NCBI GenBank assembly: GCA_003574845.1
Contig: NDHY01000003.1
Coordinates: forward strand, 64,646-103,007
Origin: a candidate division NPL-UPA2 bacterium Unc8
GTDB lineage: Bacteria > NPL-UPA2
Direction: 5' to 3'
DNA: 38,362 nucleotides
Of the stretch, positions 21,352 through 33,450 are shown in pieces. A model generated the notes under the pieces. The model saw only the letters and a program-made list of their open reading frames with translations. It was not told the DNA's origin and did no database searches. Made by a program: the position numbers and the translations under genes. Position 1 is the first letter of the stretch, and each line of letters opens with the position of its first letter.

Positions 21352-22779
21352 TCAATCTTGTGTTACAGCTCCTAACTGAGGAAAGAGAATAACATCGCGC
21401 ACAGAGGCAGAATCTGTAAATAGCATTATAAGCCGGTCAATACCTATGCCCATGCCACTTGCCGGAGGCATCCCATGCTCAAGAGCAAGTAAAAAACCTT
21501 CATCAACCACATCTGCCTGCTCATAGAGCCTTTTTCTCTGTTCAATCGGGTCAGCAAGCTCTGAATAAGCATTCGCTATCTCAATGCCGCCGGCGAAAAG
21601 CTCAAATCTTTCACACACATCTAAGTTATCTTTCTTTCTTTTTGCTAAGGGGCAGAGAAATGCCGGGTAATCAATAATAAAGGTAGGGAAAGTGCTCGCG
21701 AGAGACTTCTCCAGCAGTCTAACGATACCGCTGCGGGTTATATTTTCACCGGGAATTTCTACTTTTGCGGCGCGAAGTTTTTGAGTAAGGCTTTTCAGGT
21801 CTTCGGTTTTAATGTCAACATTGTACAATTCACGCAGAGCCTCATTAAAAGTAGTCCTTCGCCATGGGGGAGACAGGTCAATCTTCATCCCTTGATAAGT
21901 TATTTGCCGTTTGCCTAAAATAGTATCGGCAAGATTAAGGATAAGTTTTTCACAAAATTCCATCATATATTCATAATCAGCATAAGCCTCATAAAGCTCC
22001 AGCATAGTAAACTCAGGATTGTGGCGGGTAGAAAGCCCCTCGTTACGAAAAGATTTGTTCAGGTCATAGACTTTTTCCTCTCCCCCGACAAGAAGTTGCT
22101 TAAGGTATAATTCAGGAGCAATCCGAAGGAAAAGCTCCATCTTTAATGCATCCTGATATGTGCGAAAAGGCTTTCCCGCCGCACCCCCGGGGATTGCCTG
22201 AAGTATAGGAGTTTCAACTTCAGTGAAGCCCTGTTCATCAAGCCATCGTCTCAGCTCTTTGGTCAGTGAGGAGCGAAGAGCGAACACTTCTCTCGCCTTA
22301 GCGTTGGCAATGAGGTCAAGGTAGCGCTGTCGGTACTTTATCTCTACATCTTTCAGCCCGTGCCACTTTGCAGGAAGTGGCCGCATTGTTTTGGTGAGCA
22401 GCGTCCAATTACTTGCTTTTACGGAAAGCTCCCCCATGCGGGTGCGAAAAACTTCCCCGGTAATTCCAATGAAATCTCCAATGTCAATTCCTTCTTGAAA
22501 TATATTATATTTTTCTTCTCCTATAAAACTACAGTTAAGGTAAATCTGAATTACAGCGCTTCCATCCCACAAATCAAAAAAGATTGACTTGCCATGCTTG
22601 CGAATAGCAATGAGACGCCCGGCAATAATTACCTCACCTTCCATTTCCTCATTTAAGTCGGCAATAGAATGAGTGCGCTTAAATCGACCACCATAAGGAG
22701 ATACGCCGCTACTCTTAACTTTTTCAAGCTTTTGGAGGCGCTCTTCCGGGATTTCTTCTATTTTTTCCTTCTTATCCAT
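21352..22779 (-). CDS. lysS: Lysine--tRNA ligase (class II)
   Basis: YRQRYLDL, LRIAPELYLK, FRNEG, HNPEFTMLE, GMGIGIDRL. Confidence 0.97.
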   Translation of the reverse strand: MDKKEKIEEIPEERLQKLEKVKSSGVSPYGGRFKRTHSIADLNEEMEGEVIIAGRLIAIRKHGKSIFFDLWDGSAVIQIYLNCSFIGEEKYNIFQEGIDIGDFIGITGEVFRTRMGELSVKASNWTLLTKTMRPLPAKWHGLKDVEIKYRQRYLDLIANAKAREVFALRSSLTKELRRWLDEQGFTEVETPILQAIPGGAAGKPFRTYQDALKMELFLRIAPELYLKQLLVGGEEKVYDLNKSFRNEGLSTRHNPEFTMLELYEAYADYEYMMEFCEKLILNLADTILGKRQITYQGMKIDLSPPWRRTTFNEALRELYNVDIKTEDLKSLTQKLRAAKVEIPGENITRSGIVRLLEKSLASTFPTFIIDYPAFLCPLAKRKKDNLDVCERFELFAGGIEIANAYSELADPIEQRKRLYEQADVVDEGFLLALEHGMPPASGMGIGIDRLIMLFTDSASVRDVILFPQLGAVTQD

Positions 22780-22806
22780 GCTTTCGTTCTGTCAAAAGTT
22801 TTTAGT

Positions 22807-23190
22807 TTATTCCCTCTCCCCTTGTGGGAGAGGGTTAGGGTGAGGGGATAGTAAGAGTGTGTCCCTTATAACTTCTAAGACACCTTCTATATTCTCAAGA
22901 ACATCGTGATCCCAAAACCTTAAAACCTCAAACCCTTCTCCCCTTAACCACTTATCCCTTTTTCTGTCTTGTGCACCTTCGATTGCATGCTGTCCACCAT
23001 CTACCTCTATTACAATCTTTCTTTTAAAATTTACAAAATCCACTATATATCTTCCTATTGGTTGTTGCCGCCGGAATTTAAATCCTTCTAATTGATTTCT
23101 TCTTATATATTTCCATAAATATCTTTCTGTATCAGTAAAATTTTTTCTAAGATTTCTTGCAATATTAACTGACTTCTTGCCCGATTTCAC
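22807..23190 (-). CDS. DUF559 (Vsr-like) endonuclease domain protein
   Basis: ARNLRK..T..E..LW, KFRRQQPIGRYIVDF, IEVDGGQH, VLRFW. Confidence 0.92.
   Translation of the reverse strand: MKSGKKSVNIARNLRKNFTDTERYLWKYIRRNQLEGFKFRRQQPIGRYIVDFVNFKRKIVIEVDGGQHAIEGAQDRKRDKWLRGEGFEVLRFWDHDVLENIEGVLEVIRDTLLLSPHPNPLPQGERE
22810..22848 (-). repeat. Palindromic repeat at the DUF559 3' end
   Basis: CCCTCTCCC-CTTGT-GGGAGAGGG hairpin plus TTAGGGTGAGGGG tail; encodes SPHPNPLPQGERE. Confidence 0.85.
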
Positions 23191-23225
23191 CCCTACTTTT
23201 GTCCTCCCCCATCAAGAGGGAGGAA
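23188..23225 (+). repeat. Related palindromic repeat at the DUF559 5' end, opposite orientation
   Basis: CACCCCTACTTTTG then TCCTCCC...GGGAGGA hairpin. Confidence 0.7.
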
Positions 23226-23341
23226 CAAGTTTATTAGATATTTTTTGATCTCAACCCATAAAAGTATATTCTCTCCCCCTTTATGCAAGATTTTCTCCTT
23301 CATTAACACATTAACAAGGGTTTTCTATAAATTCTTTCATA

Positions 23342-24434
23342 CTATTTTTTCCTTCTTATCCATGCTTTAATCAGGCTATCAATATCGCCGTCCATAACGG
23401 CATTGACATTGCCTATTTCCAGGTTTGTGCGATGGTCTTTAACCATTGAGTAAGGATGAAAGACATAGGAACGTATTTGACTGCCCCATGCAATCTCATC
23501 CTTCTTTCCTTTTTCTTTTAACATCTCTTCTTCTTTTTTCTTTCTATAATACTCGTGAAGTCGTGCCTTGAGGACTTTGAGAGCAGTTTCCTTGTTCTGA
23601 TGTTGAGACCTCTCATTTTGACACTGGGCAGTGATTTTTGTGGGAATGTGGGTAACTCTAACTGCTGAATCAGTAACGTTCACATGCTGTCCACCGGCGC
23701 CTGATGCGCGGTAGGTATCAATTTTCAAATCGGATTGAACAATTTGTATCTCTTCGTCTTTTATCTCAGGAACGACATCAACTGAGGAAAAAGAGGTATG
23801 ACGACGCTTGGCAGCATCAAACGGGGAAATTCTGACAAGCCGATGGACGCCGTTCTCGGCTTTGAGGTATCCGTGAGCATGGTCTCCTTTTATCAGGGCA
23901 GTAACGCTCTTTATCCCGGCTTCTTCCCCATGAAGCAAGTCAATGATATCTACTTTATAACCTTTCCTTTCTGCCCAGCGAAGATACATGCGAAGAAGCA
24001 TTTTTGCCCAATCACAGGACTCAGTGCCTCCGGCGCCGGCATGAATAGAGAGAAAAGCATTACAGTAATCATTTTCTCCATCCATCAAAAAAGTGAATTC
24101 CAGCGCTTTTAGGCGCTCATTCAGTTCTTTATATCCTTCAGCAACTTCACTTATAAGGCTTTCTTCTTTTTCTTCCCCTGCTAATTGGAGCAATTCCGAT
24201 AGTTCGCTTTCTTTCTTTTCCAGTTCCTGCCAGGGAGTAACCTCTGCTTTAAGACGGTTCAATTGCCCGATAACTTCTCTTGCTTCCCGCGGCTCATCCC
24301 AGAAAGAAGCCCCCTCTATTTTCTTCTCAAGGCTTTCTATTTCTCTTCCCTTATTGGCAAAGTCAAAGGTGCCCTCGCATTTTCAGGAGCTTTTCCCGAA
24401 TATCAATTAGCTCCTTGCGCAATTCATCAAACAT
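23342..24434 (-). CDS. prfB: Peptide chain release factor 2, programmed +1 frameshift
   Basis: ATG 24434 gives MFDELRKELIDIREKLLKMRGHL, then CTT TGA C (24368-24362) with AGGG upstream; +1 frame DFANKG... continues to SPF and GGQ motifs. Confidence 0.97.
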
Positions 24435-24449: not shown

Positions 24450-24620
24450 TCTAACAGTCTTCAGTCTTCAGTCGGCAGTCTAACAGTCCTTAGTCTATCC
24501 ACCTGGGAACAAATCTTAAACTCCCTGCCTGCGGCAGGCAGGTAAATCCTAAATCCTACCCTGAACTTGATTCAGGGCAAAACCCAATTACCAGTTACCA
24601 ATTTCTAATTTTTAATTTCA
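24450..24620. repeat. Heptamer tracts containing two short hairpin elements
   Basis: CAGTCTT, TAAATCC, CAATTAC runs; CCTGCCTG-CGG-CAGGCAGG (24524-24542) and CCCTGAA-CTTGA-TTCAGGG (24559-24577). Confidence 0.8.
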
Positions 24621-25543
24621 CTCTTTGTGCCTTCCTCTTTTCCTTCCATTACTTCAATTGCATGTTCTAATATTGGAGATATTATTTCAAGAGAGTCTTT
24701 TGCCCCTTGAGGGCTTCCGGGAAGATTCACAATCAAAGTTTTTCCTCTGATTCCAGCAACACCACGGGAGAGATAGGCTCGCACTGTCTTTTTAGCTCCC
24801 TCAGCTCGTATTATCTCAGCAAAACCCGGCATCTCTTTATCCAATACCTCTCCGGTTGCTTCAGGGGTTACATCCCGCAGTGATGGACCTGTTCCACCTG
24901 TGGTGAGAATAAGATTAACGATACCGCTATCAGACCAGTTTTTCAAAGTTTTTATAATCTCGCCGAAGTCATCGGAAATGAGCTTATACAGCATCACTTC
25001 AGCAGCAAGAGCTTTTAATGTCTCTCTCAAGAGCATCCCGCTTTTGTCTTCTCTTTCTCCGCTTGCGCATCTGTCGCTTATAGTGAGTACACCTGCCAAA
25101 ATTTTCCTGCCGCCTCCCGGGGTAATCCTATCCCACTTTTTTACTTTACCTCCACTTAGAACTTTAGCAAATACTCCCTGAGAAGGCAGGATACAGTTAC
25201 CAAGACTTTTGTAAATTTTACATGGTTTCTGGCAGGTCTTGCCAATTTGAGTTATCTCAAGAAGAGCACTCTTGCCAACCTTGAGTCTTGCACCCACGAG
25301 AAGACTTGTAATTTCTATTTTGGTGGTAGTGAGGTTTTCTCCAAAGCCGCCACAGCTAATTTTTATGCCTTTTTTCTTCATTTCTTTGAGGGTCTCATCC
25401 GCCAGAAGACTTACTTGCCTGGAGCCTCCTCCGGCATGAGCATCTCCCTCCAACCCATAATTTTTCCTGAGAATTCCCTCCTCCACTCTATTTTTAGAAG
25501 TACCTTTCTTCTTGCTGATACAGACAGCTAAAACCTTTCCCAT
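24605..25543 (-). CDS. MOSC domain - MogA/MoaB molybdopterin adenylyltransferase fusion
   Basis: GLEGDAHAG..RQVSLL, FGENLT, TQIGK.C; then TISDR, DKSG, TTGGTG...RDVTPEA, NLPGSP; TAATG coupling to upstream gene. Confidence 0.88.
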   Translation of the reverse strand: MGKVLAVCISKKKGTSKNRVEEGILRKNYGLEGDAHAGGGSRQVSLLADETLKEMKKKGIKISCGGFGENLTTTKIEITSLLVGARLKVGKSALLEITQIGKTCQKPCKIYKSLGNCILPSQGVFAKVLSGGKVKKWDRITPGGGRKILAGVLTISDRCASGEREDKSGMLLRETLKALAAEVMLYKLISDDFGEIIKTLKNWSDSGIVNLILTTGGTGPSLRDVTPEATGEVLDKEMPGFAEIIRAEGAKKTVRAYLSRGVAGIRGKTLIVNLPGSPQGAKDSLEIISPILEHAIEVMEGKEEGTKSEIKN

Positions 25544-26502
25544 TACATTTCCCACCTATTACAGCGGCTTCCCCATCTGGAGACAGGCTCGCCTTCAAAT
25601 AAAAGCTGAACAATCTCGCAAGAGTTAGTGCACTCATCACACTCAAAGCCTGATGTTCTATAATCAGCCATAGTAATCTCAAGCCCTTTAAACCTTGTCG
25701 TTCCTGATAGCTCTTCCCGCGCCAGGATTGCCACTCCAATAGCTCCCATCATAATATGGTTTGGCGGGATAATGACCTTCTGCTCCAATTCCTGTTCAAA
25801 TGCCGACTTAATTCCTAAATTTGCTGCTACTCCCCCTTGAAATACAAATGGGGGAAGAAGCTCTTTTCCCTTAGCCACATTGTTGAGGTAATTCCTCACC
25901 AGCGCCTGGCACAGTCCAGCAATAATATTTTCCTTATTATGCCCTGTCTGTTGCTTATGCACCATATCAGTTTCAGCAAATACAGTGCAGCGTCCAGCGA
26001 TTCTAACAGGACTGCTTGCCCGAAGAGCATATTCTCCAAAGTCTTCAATGGGAATGCCAAGCCTCAATGCCTGATGCTCAAGGAAAGAGCCGGTCCCCGC
26101 AGCACAGACCGTGTTCATAGCAAAATCGGTCGCAATCCCGTCTCTGATGATAATGATTTTTGAATCCTGCCCCCCAATTTCAAATACCGTCTGGACCTCG
26201 GGAAGAAAGACAGTAGCTGCCACGGCATGAGCAGTAATCTCGTTCTTGATTGTATCTGCACCCACCAGGGTTCCTGCCAGGTACCTCCCGCTACCCGTGG
26301 TTCCCACTGATAAAATTTTGCTGGTTGCATCAGCTACGGAGGAAACTTCTTTTAAGCCGGCCTGGATTGTTCTGACAGGGTCTCCCTCTGTCTTGGCATA
26401 GCTACAGACTATAATCTCATCCTGCTCATTAATAATGGCTATCTTTGTCGTTATTGAGCCAACATCAATTCCCAAAAAAGCATTTGTCAGCGTATTATTC
26501 AT
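25543..26502 (-). CDS. Acyl-CoA dehydratase activase (ASKHA ATPase, 4Fe-4S)
   Basis: GIDVGSITTK, TTGSGR, EIGGQDSK, MNTVCAAGTGSFL, RCTVFAE, GGVAAN, C-terminal CxxCxxxC. Confidence 0.9.
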   Translation of the reverse strand: MNNTLTNAFLGIDVGSITTKIAIINEQDEIIVCSYAKTEGDPVRTIQAGLKEVSSVADATSKILSVGTTGSGRYLAGTLVGADTIKNEITAHAVAATVFLPEVQTVFEIGGQDSKIIIIRDGIATDFAMNTVCAAGTGSFLEHQALRLGIPIEDFGEYALRASSPVRIAGRCTVFAETDMVHKQQTGHNKENIIAGLCQALVRNYLNNVAKGKELLPPFVFQGGVAANLGIKSAFEQELEQKVIIPPNHIMMGAIGVAILAREELSGTTRFKGLEITMADYRTSGFECDECTNSCEIVQLLFEGEPVSRWGSRCNRWEM

Positions 26503-26549
26503 TGTGCGACTCCGGGTTTCCGATTTTTATTGCTAAATTATTTTGTGTT

Positions 26550-26578
26550 TCTATATCACATTTCTTTATTTTTATCAA
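26550..26578 (-). promoter_or_regulatory. Putative promoter of the activase/MOSC-MogA unit
   Basis: TTGATA-17 nt-TATAGA with extended TG. Confidence 0.4.
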
Positions 26579-26681
26579 GCAAAATTATTGGTCACAACTT
26601 TTTTAGTGAATGGTGATTAGTAAATGGTGATTGGTGAATGGGGGTCAGGAGCCAGAATTCAGAAGTCAGAATCCTGGACTG

Positions 26682-26808
26682 CCTGCCTGTGCGTTGCCTG
26701 CCTGAGCGCCTGCCTGAGCGTTGCTCGCCTGCCTGTGCGGTGCACGCAGACAGGCAGACAGGCAGACAGGCAGACAGGAGAGCGCTCGCAGTCAGGCACG
26801 CAGACAGG
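26682..26808. repeat. Nested array of a 27-bp imperfect palindrome CCTGCCTGWGCG-N3-CWCGCAGACAGG
   Basis: Four left arms followed by right arms, bounded by TGGACTG on both sides, inside heptamer tracts (26604-26845). Confidence 0.88.
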
Positions 26809-26846
26809 TGGACTGTATTTGAACTCTGAACCCCGGAACCTGAATA

Positions 26847-27686
26847 TTAGCTTTTTGTTTTACTTTTCTGCAAAGATTCCTGAAGAAAAGCCAAAAAAGT
26901 CCCAAAGAAAATTCCCAAAATGCCGGCTACGGACATATTCAAAGCCGGTCTTGGCTTAATCGGCACTTTCGGAATAAGCGGCGCTTTTATTACTTTAGTG
27001 GATCGGATATTTTCAAGTAATCTTTTATGAGAATTAATTCCTAAATATAGATTTTCTATTTCCCGTTTTCTGATTTCTAATCTTTCTTTGGTGGCAAAAA
27101 GGGCAAACTGAGAAGCAGGAGTCTGTTCTTTAAGAGGGACTTTTTCTAAAATTTCAATTTGAGTTCTTATGCTTTCATTTTCTTCTTCTAAAGAAATAAT
27201 TTTAGTTCTCAATCTTTCAATATCATTTTCAAAAAGCTCTTTTTTAACTTTAATTTGTTCCTGGTGGTTTGATAGAATCAAATTATTAATTTCCTGCAAA
27301 ATCGCTTTAGTTAGTTTCGGCTCAGTATCTTCTGCTTCTATTTTGAGCAAGTTAGTGCCTCCTGGGTTCTCAGATTTTACTTCTATATTTTTTTCTTCCG
27401 GGATGCCCAGCCTTGCCCTGATTAATCTTTCATATACGCCAAGTTTAAGTTTTTCTATTATCTGAGACGAGGCTTCAATAGCTTCTACTACTTCTTTTAT
27501 GTATCCTATTTCCAAAATGGTCTCGGCTCTATAAATTCTTGGCGAAATATAACTGAAAACTCCGGCCCCGGCCACTGCCAAAACAAAACCAAAAAAAATC
27601 AGCCGCTTTCTCCTCAAAATGACATTCAAATAATCCATCAAGTTTATTTCATCAAATTCCGAATGAACTTCTTGCTTTTGATCCAT
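26847..27686 (-). CDS. wzz: Wzz-type polysaccharide chain-length determinant
   Basis: DEINLMDY + TM1, coiled coil, Pro-rich PIKPRP + Gly-rich TM2. Confidence 0.8.
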   Translation of the reverse strand: MDQKQEVHSEFDEINLMDYLNVILRRKRLIFFGFVLAVAGAGVFSYISPRIYRAETILEIGYIKEVVEAIEASSQIIEKLKLGVYERLIRARLGIPEEKNIEVKSENPGGTNLLKIEAEDTEPKLTKAILQEINNLILSNHQEQIKVKKELFENDIERLRTKIISLEEENESIRTQIEILEKVPLKEQTPASQFALFATKERLEIRKREIENLYLGINSHKRLLENIRSTKVIKAPLIPKVPIKPRPALNMSVAGILGIFFGTFLAFLQESLQKSKTKS

Positions 27687-32526: not shown

Positions 32527-33450
32527 TTATAATGAAGCTTTTAATATGTTGTAAACGGTCTTTCGCGATACACCCAGTCGATCTGCTATTTCTGTTCGAG
32601 TATAGCCACGGGCAATGAGTTGTTCTATGAGGTATTTTTTCGCCTTTCTACTTTCGGGCTTGCTATGGGGAAACTCCTTTGCCACGGTTTCAATCTGTTT
32701 TTCTAACTCCTCCATTCCTGTTAAATCTATACCTAAAAATTTGGCAATCTGTTTTTTCTTGTTAACCATTTTGAAAATAGAAGGAAACATGGAGGCAAGT
32801 TTTACCTGAAAACGTTCTATGGCATCTTCCTGTTCCAAGACATGCGCAGACTCTAACTGGCCACCCTGTTTCAGTAGGAGCCGGTATTTCTTTTTATTCT
32901 CAATTTCGTTCCCGGAAAGCAAGTTTAAGATGAAATCGGGATCAATAAAGGATTTCGGAGCATTATCCTCATAATATAATCTACATGATGACCAGTGATA
33001 AGTCAAAGGGTCAGTTGCAAGGCCGACTTTTACAGGATTCAGATGAATATAAAGAGAAGCAGCTAAAAGATAGCTGTCATCAAGGCAAACAGCCTGCCTG
33101 TAAGGGCCACCGAACAGATGCCCTTTCCTTTCGTACTTTTTGTTGAACTTCATGGCGTATCTTGAGAACAGATCCCGCATGGCGTCATATAAGTTGCTTT
33201 CTGTTGGGCTCAGGAGTACATGCACATGATTCGGCATAAGACAAAAGGCATAAACCCTGAGAGAATAATTGTCGGCTATCTTCTTCAGGCATCCTATCAT
33301 AAAAAGATAGTCGCTATCTTCCATAAACAGCGGCTCCTTGCCAGCTGCCCTTTGTGTGATGTGAGAAACCACATTAGGGGCATTCAGTTTCCGGGTTGCC
33401 CGAAAATACCGCTTAATCTTCCCTTGTCTGATCAGATCAAATAGGTCCAT
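32527..33450 (-). mobile_element. RAYT / IS200-like Y1 HUH transposase with C-terminal HTH
   Basis: HITQR, LMPNHVH (HUH), GHLF, YIHLNPVK (catalytic Tyr), WSS; HTH TRTEIADRLGVSRKTVY. Confidence 0.9.

Follow-up and report, generated by a model that had tools for sequence, protein, structure and literature searches.

How does a short hairpin come to lie four deep within copies of itself? The question is raised by an intergenic block in the candidate division NPL-UPA2 bacterium Unc8 (GenBank assembly GCA_003574845.1; 996 kb in 24 contigs, 43.7% G+C; called G000 below, with its contigs cited as C1, C2 and so on), of which we analysed a stretch of 38,362 nucleotides (contig NDHY01000003.1, positions 64,646 to 103,007; the window). 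Parsing of the letters places four hairpin units, nested one within another, at window positions 26675-26815, and parse and folding together assign the entire structure, including an ACAGTCC heptamer on either side, to the minus strand. A first-pass annotation had seen here a tiny non-autonomous element inserting into earlier copies of itself. The restoration of the layers, the existence of solo units and their unrelated flanks support this view, and the block is probably a nest of a trans-mobilised, non-autonomous hairpin element, similar to repetitive extragenic palindromes (REPs) and small dispersed repeats (SDRs), that prefers its own hairpin as a target.

The letters at 26675-26815 are identical to those transcribed in the first-pass annotation, and its observation that removing an inner unit restores the surrounding one is true of all four layers, which are canonical 27- or 30-nt units with a loop of their own. 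Read on the minus strand, the outermost layer (A) is divided into a 5' half, CCTGTCTGCGTG, at 26797-26808 and a 3' half of loop and right arm, CAACGCACAGGCAGG, at 26682-26696, the host being cut after its nucleotide 12. Joined, the halves form a 27-mer with the loop AAC, the commonest variant elsewhere (18/114 units; this and the following feature counts refer to units from the matches listed, in sets of 110, 113, 114 or 115), and the same split point recurs on contig C2 of G000, in genome G030 and at loci L037, L060 and L103. Layer B consists of a 5' half with left arm, inner stem and loop, CCTGACTGCGAGCGCTCT (26779-26796), and a 3' half, CGCTCAGGCAGG (26697-26708). It is a 30-nt unit of the GAG type, with the inner stem GAGCG/CGCTC and the loop CTCT on the minus strand; this type is found uninterrupted in G000 at C12:1532-1561 and C2:9572-9601, from which the window copy differs by one mismatch. 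Layer C joins CCTGTCTG at 26755-26762, an arbitrary choice among three identical octamers, to CGAGCAACGCTCAGGCAGG at 26709-26727; restored, it is a 27-nt GAG-type unit (GAGC/AAC/GCTC) of which no uninterrupted copy was found in 41 genomes. The innermost layer (D) is an intact 27-nt unit at 26728-26754, and its 27-mer recurs in 4 of the 114 units, in other phyla. The 12-mer CCTGCCTGWGCG alone is present in four copies, at window positions 26682, 26697, 26709 and 26728, compared with a mean of 0.17 copies in shuffled sequence and four copies in none of 100 shuffles.

Two details had been left outside the first parse. The hexamer AGAGCG is now explained as the loop of a 30-nt variant, because layer B is of this variant, which also occurs solo in G000. 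The two extra octamers still fall outside the nest: at 26763-26778, two copies of CCTGTCTG have no partner arm, and nesting does not account for them. They look like a product of slippage, and the repeat at 26746-26778 is a perfect tandem array with an 8-nt period (4.1 copies, 100% match). On both sides the block is bordered by TGGACTG (26675-26681 and 26809-26815). We rejected a target duplication as the origin of this heptamer, which represents two units of the surrounding ACAGTCC array. The statement that every left arm follows a G holds for all four arms and can be generalised: on the forward strand, C is the base after the unit in 98/114 copies, and a purine (G or A) precedes it in 92/114.

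On the plus strand, the left arms read CCTGCCTG and the right arms CAGACAGG, giving a C·A mismatch. The same arm pair on the minus strand is CCTGTCTG/CAGGCAGG, with a T·G (U·G) wobble, and the minus strand is therefore named the unit's forward strand. In like-for-like folding the minus strand of the block is somewhat more stable than the plus strand, both as DNA (-43.2 kcal/mol, z -3.6, versus -40.2, z -2.2) and as RNA (-75.7, z -3.6, versus -71.2, z -1.8). The unit has an outer stem of 7-8 bp, CCTGTCTG/CAGGCAGG, with a fixed T·G mismatch, followed by two unpaired bases (GC), an inner stem of 4-5 bp, GTGC(G)/(C)GCAC, and a free loop of 3-4 nt. Of 150 copies in five genomes, 144 have the T·G form, five a perfect C-G pair and one a perfect T-A pair. 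The inner pairs are Watson-Crick in 15 of 18 distinct 27-mer variants and in 16/19 and 15/19 among the 30-mers, and the loops are highly variable among distinct variants. The GAG type differs by a double compensatory change of the inner stem, GTGC/GCAC to GAGC/GCTC, and was not found in the other 40 of the 41 genomes. Unit length ranges from 26 to 36 nt, with 27 and 30 nt predominating; it is divisible by three (27, 30, 33 or 36 nt) in 101/115 copies, though most copies are intergenic. Target-site duplications were not apparent, as direct repeats of at least 3 nt abut 4/113 units, compared with 3.4 in a control that paired flanks of different loci. Insertion at the apex of pre-existing hairpins in general was discarded as too weak a signal, a flank complementarity of at least 7/10 being seen at 4 units with 1.0 expected.

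The dispersal of the unit was followed with two patterns. The looser one, CCTGTCTGCG-N(2-30)-CAGGCAGG, was run on 41 sampled genomes with the reversed pattern as a control. It is present in six of them, with 8 matches in G000, 15 in G001 (same genus as G000), 2 in G002, 1 in G005, 8 in G006 and 111 in G030, a genome related to G000 at domain level only; the control gave no match in any of the 41. A strict 22-base pattern, run over one genome per species, matched at least 113 stretches in genomes and metagenome-assembled genomes (MAGs), where by arithmetic less than one chance match is expected. Some 20 lineages, with names taken from the record titles, appear among the matches listed: Planctomycetota (Brocadia, Kuenenia), Latescibacterota, Thermodesulfobacteriota, Verrucomicrobiota, Kiritimatiellae, Lentisphaeria, Zetaproteobacteria, Gallionellaceae, Methylomirabilota, Nitrospirota, Nitrospinota, Acidobacteriota, Chloroflexota, Bipolaricaulota, WOR-3, Binatia, Campylobacterota, Spirochaeta, Firmicutes and others. 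The flanks of these loci are unrelated, and in other phyla no heptamer arrays surround the unit. Three complete Latescibacterota chromosomes (G042-G044) contain 35, 64 and 43 matches, a complete Brocadia genome contains 2, and G041 and G045 contain 1-2 each. Within IMG/VR, the strict pattern occurs in 33 stretches of 28 viral contigs. Some copies lie within open reading frames (ORFs), including ones read through in frame. An in-frame unit is also present in a phage capsid-like protein of three related contigs; the case was dropped as a clean insertion, as the alignment to two unit-free homologues is too poor at this position.

Solo units, the absence of which would have spoken against the first-pass annotation, number at least five in G000 and hundreds in other genomes and viral contigs. 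Altogether G000 has 11 arm pairs, of which 10 are credible loci. Six are intergenic: the window, a nest at C2:9548-9635, C5:4685-4712, C7:5975-6002, C12:1532-1561 and C12:155284-155311. Four further pairs, with other palindromic centres, lie within long ORFs, and a fifth, spanning 105 nt on C21, is probably due to chance. A word search of the literature, with the papers listed judged on title and abstract, found no description of the unit sequence. All 16 matches to Rfam remain below the gathering threshold, the best with 23 bits against a threshold of 48, and 14 of them are to microRNA-precursor models, that is, to generic hairpins.

Nesting is not confined to the window. Of the units in other genomes, 9/110 sit between the arms of another unit, and in five of these nine (L037, L054, L060, L103 and L112) the host is oriented opposite to its guest. 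Hosts are split after nucleotide 8, 9, 10, 12 or 18, most often after 12 (window, C2, G030 and three other lineages). The arrangement A[B] is found at C2:9548-9635 as well, with B cut after nucleotide 12 there and after nucleotide 18 in the window; because the cuts differ, at least two separate insertion events are indicated. With 64 matches, the unit covers about 0.04% of the G043 chromosome by arithmetic, so that a nested proportion of about 8%, which the detection method may inflate, is far above random placement. In G030, nests three deep occupy the variable centre of a larger dispersed repeat, about 150-200 nt long. This larger repeat (e.g. L161-L180) has conserved flanks, ...GTAAGTTCCGGCAAGCCGGAACTTATGA...AAGCAAGCTTT at one end and CGCACTCCGAAAACGGAGTT... 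at the other, and many G030 contigs terminate in it.

Beyond the observed anatomy, dispersal, conserved asymmetry, absent target duplication and nesting frequency, we infer an insertion reaction, a single-stranded intermediate and an enzyme. An enzyme encoded elsewhere would copy the element in trans and act on its folded single strand; recognition of this form would account for mismatch and bulge being kept on one strand only. Insertion would take place between a purine and a C without duplicating target bases, preferably in the middle of an existing copy (following nucleotides 8-18 of the host, mostly 12), and repeated rounds at one site would produce nests. At this locus, B would have entered A, C would have entered B and D would have entered C, while the CCTGTCTG octamer would have been separately expanded by slippage, like the 7-8-nt repeats throughout G000. 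A more far-reaching version, which we offer tentatively and rate as rather doubtful, would make the 27-nt hairpin one of the smallest known mobile elements: moving as a folded single strand, it would home to its own apex, be carried between phyla by viruses and be copied by a widely conserved host enzyme. Homing into the apex would then give rise to the Russian dolls, copying by a host enzyme instead of a dedicated transposase would leave no partner gene beside the unit, and the survival of copies landing in genes would account for the dominance of 27, 30, 33 and 36 nt.

Several observations weigh against a trans-mobilised element, the first being that the searches made have yielded no candidate enzyme. 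The mobilising enzyme, described as not identifiable in the first-pass annotation, is still so after searches for Y1 transposases, DUF559 nucleases and recurrent neighbours. Six Y1_Tnp genes, similar to REP-associated tyrosine transposases (RAYTs), are present in G000, each with other flanking hairpins or repeats, and the unit flanks none of six Y1 loci examined in five genomes; one reverse-oriented, unit-like copy lies about 1.5 kb from a Y1 gene at L135. At the level of the Pfam family, Y1_Tnp occurs in 29 of the 41 genomes, namely in 5/6 with the unit and 24/35 without it. A RAYT/Y1 transposase was rejected as a partner, since the unit does not lie beside these genes and the family, at this level, does not clearly set unit-bearing genomes apart. 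When 1622 ORFs within 1.5 kb of a unit were clustered, no cluster was represented at more than 2 of the 113 listed loci, and neighbour clusters at viral loci reflect only related phages. The DUF559 nuclease was rejected as well, since no T·G unit lies within 1.5 kb at 10/10 loci and G030, with its 111 units, has no DUF559 match. Genes between close unit pairs in Latescibacterota (the housekeeping genes for GltX and a thiamine pyrophosphate enzyme, and IS1595, DDE_5 and UPF0236 transposases) share no common theme and were likewise set aside; the insertion sequence (IS) elements beside units belong to three different families.

Neither has gain or loss of the unit at one orthologous site been seen, and no clean empty-site allele was found. 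The block lies between the Wzz-like gene (26847-27686, minus strand; PF02706 with 28 bits, GNVR with 23.7 bits and below its cut-off) and, downstream of the spacer, a BcrAD/BadFG-type activase gene (25543-26502, minus strand; PF01869 with 163 bits). The empty or shallower alleles that the first-pass annotation had suggested looking for in this spacer did not appear, either in relatives or in sequencing-run contigs. The spacer is not syntenic in four order-level genomes; activase orthologues with 73-75% identity exist there next to a different gene, and the spacer was discarded as an empty site. No shorter allele is present in the listed contigs of the four sequencing runs (three of DNA, one of an RNA library). 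For three other unit-bearing loci compared with G001, the intergenic DNA is wholly different or a contig end intervenes; spacers turn over completely within the genus, and those of G001 hold different repeats. Heptamer modules lacking the unit (C1:84064, C23:24879 and C23:7235) were rejected as empty sites, being paralogous rather than allelic.

The nearest thing to an empty site is found in CarB, where unit-derived in-frame inserts are present in G000 and G001, in the linker before the second ATP-grasp half, and the proteins of G004 and G006 have a short linker without the unit; because this linker is variable, the case is suggestive only. The CarB of G006 (C152, L188), an order-level relative, has an in-frame insert of about 36 amino acids (aligned region ...RSQNSEDRRQKTEVRSQK...) that looks like a tandem heptamer array (CAGAAGT type) in translation. 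At the position of the C2 nest (C2:9400-9700, L009), G001 has an ORF of about 400 amino acids on its contig C3 (L160, L157) that looks membrane-protein-like by eye. G000 keeps only about the first 27 codons of it, and as arrays and nest follow these codons, the site reads as a deletion junction filled with repeats.

The remaining points against insertion of single units agree with local palindrome growth, by which a module-borne single hairpin would have been enlarged in place by slippage, intrastrand template switching and gene conversion, no unit having been inserted in G000. All six intergenic copies lie at one type of junction, preceded 5' by (ACAGTYY)n and followed 3' by CAG-(TTCTGAM)n-(CAWTCAC)n, so they could have spread within a larger module and not as single units. 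The window and C2 share A[B], part of which may have been copied whole. Nests in G030 carry unequal numbers of left and right arms and the window contains the two unmatched CCTGTCTG octamers, forms that also need slippage or deletion. Finally, G000 is saturated with slipping 7-8-nt arrays, with 398 period-7 rows and 126 period-8 rows reported by Tandem Repeats Finder. Slippage yields identical neighbours, whereas the layers here differ in type and each retains a loop of its own, located to the left or the right of its insert. Removal of the inserts gives precisely the variants found alone in other phyla, layer B is cut at different positions in two loci, and hosts and guests lie in opposite orientations elsewhere; near-identical units with unrelated flanks in many phyla would be left unaccounted for. 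We consider local growth unlikely as the origin of the nest. The earlier statement that simple slippage would not suffice is borne out for the layers, with their different types, own loops and oppositely oriented hosts in 5/9 cases, but does not extend to the additional octamers, which need it.

Still less likely, in our view, is a selected structural site, either a site for protein binding or an RNA element acting, for example, to stabilise a 3' end or to block transcription, with the nests as a by-product. Such a role would fit the conservation of the T·G mismatch, bulge and stems across phyla while the loops vary, and also the position of the hairpin, which follows 32 nt after the stop codon of the Wzz-like gene on the minus strand and lies in sense orientation. 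The two outer portions of the block (26587-26708, 26780-26945) are represented among contigs from the RNA library, where carry-over of DNA is possible; the segment 26533-26569 has depth in the DNA runs and none in the RNA-library run, a gap from which we draw no conclusion. Unit orientation agrees with that of both flanking genes at only 2/6 intergenic loci of G000, judged from crude ORF calls. No terminator-like site (GC-rich hairpin with a T run) was detected in 26300-27000, and no Rfam family reaches its threshold. Copies inside ORFs, a patchy distribution (6/41 genomes, with 1-2 matches in G041 and G045 and up to 111 in G030) and the full replacement of spacers within the genus also speak against selection for structure.

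With regard to the assembly, 26200-26728 and 26780-27300 are reproduced, with no joints and at most one difference from the window (0-1), by Logan contigs from three DNA runs of two studies and from an RNA-library run. Among the contigs listed none spans 26729-26779, so that the tandem count of the 8-mer is the least certain detail of the block. A second public metagenome record (L148), possibly not an independent assembly, is the same through the whole nest and 99.9% identical over 5417 bases. An artefact, in the form of a repeat collapsed or chimerically joined in short-read assembly, is very improbable: the listed k-mer contigs of all four runs do break within the block and leave 26729-26779 unspanned, but the outer layers were recovered in three DNA runs from two studies, the second record matches the entire nest exactly, and comparable nests exist in other assemblies, complete chromosomes included.

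Other repeats and genes of the window lie near the subjects treated above. Next to the block, tandem 7/14-nt arrays occupy 26603-26672, (GTGAATG)n extending over 26603-26641 and (GTCAGAA)n over 26644-26672. Another, related hairpin repeat, CCTGCCTG-CGG-CAGGCAGG, is located at 24524-24542 and has the same 8-nt arms with perfect pairing and without the inner stem. It lies in a heptamer mosaic, and four genome copies have common flanks (C1:11833, C1:37345, C7:7875 and C18:89169). One of the RAYT-like Y1 genes is also in the window (32527-33450, minus strand; 307 amino acids with a C-terminal helix-turn-helix); it scores 61 bits with NF047646 (REP-associated tyrosine transposase), for which the cut-off is 80. 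A different hairpin repeat, TTTACCCA...TGGGTAAA, which has no relation to the present unit, borders it on both sides. The only DUF559 gene of G000, encoding a Vsr-like nuclease, is found at about 22767-23387 (match 22858-23172, minus strand). A direct repeat of about 25 nt that contains a gene start (reverse complement of ATGGATAAGAAGGAAAAAA) is present on both sides, a layout suggestive of cassette insertion into the 5' end of some gene, and a G-rich hairpin repeat adjoins. Outside the window, a different short dispersed repeat lies within a 1069-amino-acid ORF at C12:103010-103055 (L183 216-253); G006 has 22 places that match it and G001, G003 and G004 have several, with 83-100% identity.

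A unit of about 27 nt keeps its stems, mismatch and bulge in some 20 named lineages among the matches listed and in viral contigs. If mobile, it would represent a minimal substrate for what a transposition or copying enzyme must recognise, and it would mark where distantly related bacteria of a common habitat have exchanged DNA. In many MAGs the unit accounts, at the level of annotation, for islands rich in GC, for contig breaks and for unusual in-frame peptides (LSAC.AQAG, CLRA.HRQ, PVCV.RTGR).

Among known repeats, the short tandemly repeated repetitive (STRR) heptamers of heterocystous cyanobacteria are the kind of array that flanks the block and fills G000; the hairpin unit, in contrast, is not tandem and occurs elsewhere without heptamer arrays. 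Miniature inverted-repeat transposable elements (MITEs) such as Correia/NEMIS (Neisseria miniature insertion sequences) and ERIC (enterobacterial repetitive intergenic consensus), together with the Rickettsia palindromic elements, are also non-autonomous and hairpin-folding, with some copies in frame. MITEs are 50-500 nt long and have terminal inverted repeats and target duplications, whereas the unit measures 26-36 nt and no duplication was found. Derivatives of IS200/IS605 share the one-strand hairpin and insertion beside a short target without duplication. They carry two different subterminal hairpins, exceed 100 nt and show a strong bias towards the lagging-strand template. A bias of that strength is not evident here: in G043, with replichores set by GC skew in 20 sampled 20-kb windows, the forward strand is the G>C strand for only 39/63 units, a weak and not significant excess.

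REPs, with their composite forms BIME (bacterial interspersed mosaic elements) and REPIN (REP doublets forming hairpins), are likewise short imperfect palindromes with stem irregularities and a free loop, mostly extragenic and present in tens to a hundred copies. REPs have a conserved tetranucleotide (such as GTAG) beside the hairpin and form inverted doublets, the REPINs. Here only a purine before and a C after the unit are conserved, with no tetranucleotide, and nests are found instead of spaced doublets. To our knowledge, REP families are lineage-specific and each is tied to its own RAYT gene; the unit, by contrast, is near-identical in sequence across phyla, its presence does not clearly track Y1_Tnp at the level of the Pfam family, and no Y1 gene was found to be flanked by it. 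Membership in the REP/RAYT system fails on the tested features of a flanked RAYT gene, a tetranucleotide and doublets. Common to both are the lack of a target duplication and the presence of RAYT-like Y1 genes in the genome. The mismatch and bulge on one strand, the absence of a duplication and the purine|C boundary resemble, by analogy, the action of HUH/Y1 enzymes on REP and IS200/IS605 ends (for background, PMC3116915 and PMC6006769).

The closest described kind is the group of SDRs of Nostocaceae, to which the unit is likened by description only. These repeats, SDR1-8, are reportedly 21-27 nt long, with conserved ends, a variable palindromic centre and no partner gene nearby, and Elhai et al. 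in 2008 are said to have found copies inside one another and inside heptamer tandem arrays. Two other sources state that SDR5 inserts precisely into HIP1 (PMC4390886) and that SDRs are limited to Nostocaceae (PMC5861425). The host studied here, in contrast, is not a cyanobacterium, and the unit is present in about 20 named lineages, none of them Nostocaceae among the matches listed, as well as in viral contigs. In size class, dispersal and nesting the two are alike, and 6/10 loci of G000 lie within heptamer arrays, as SDR copies are said to do.

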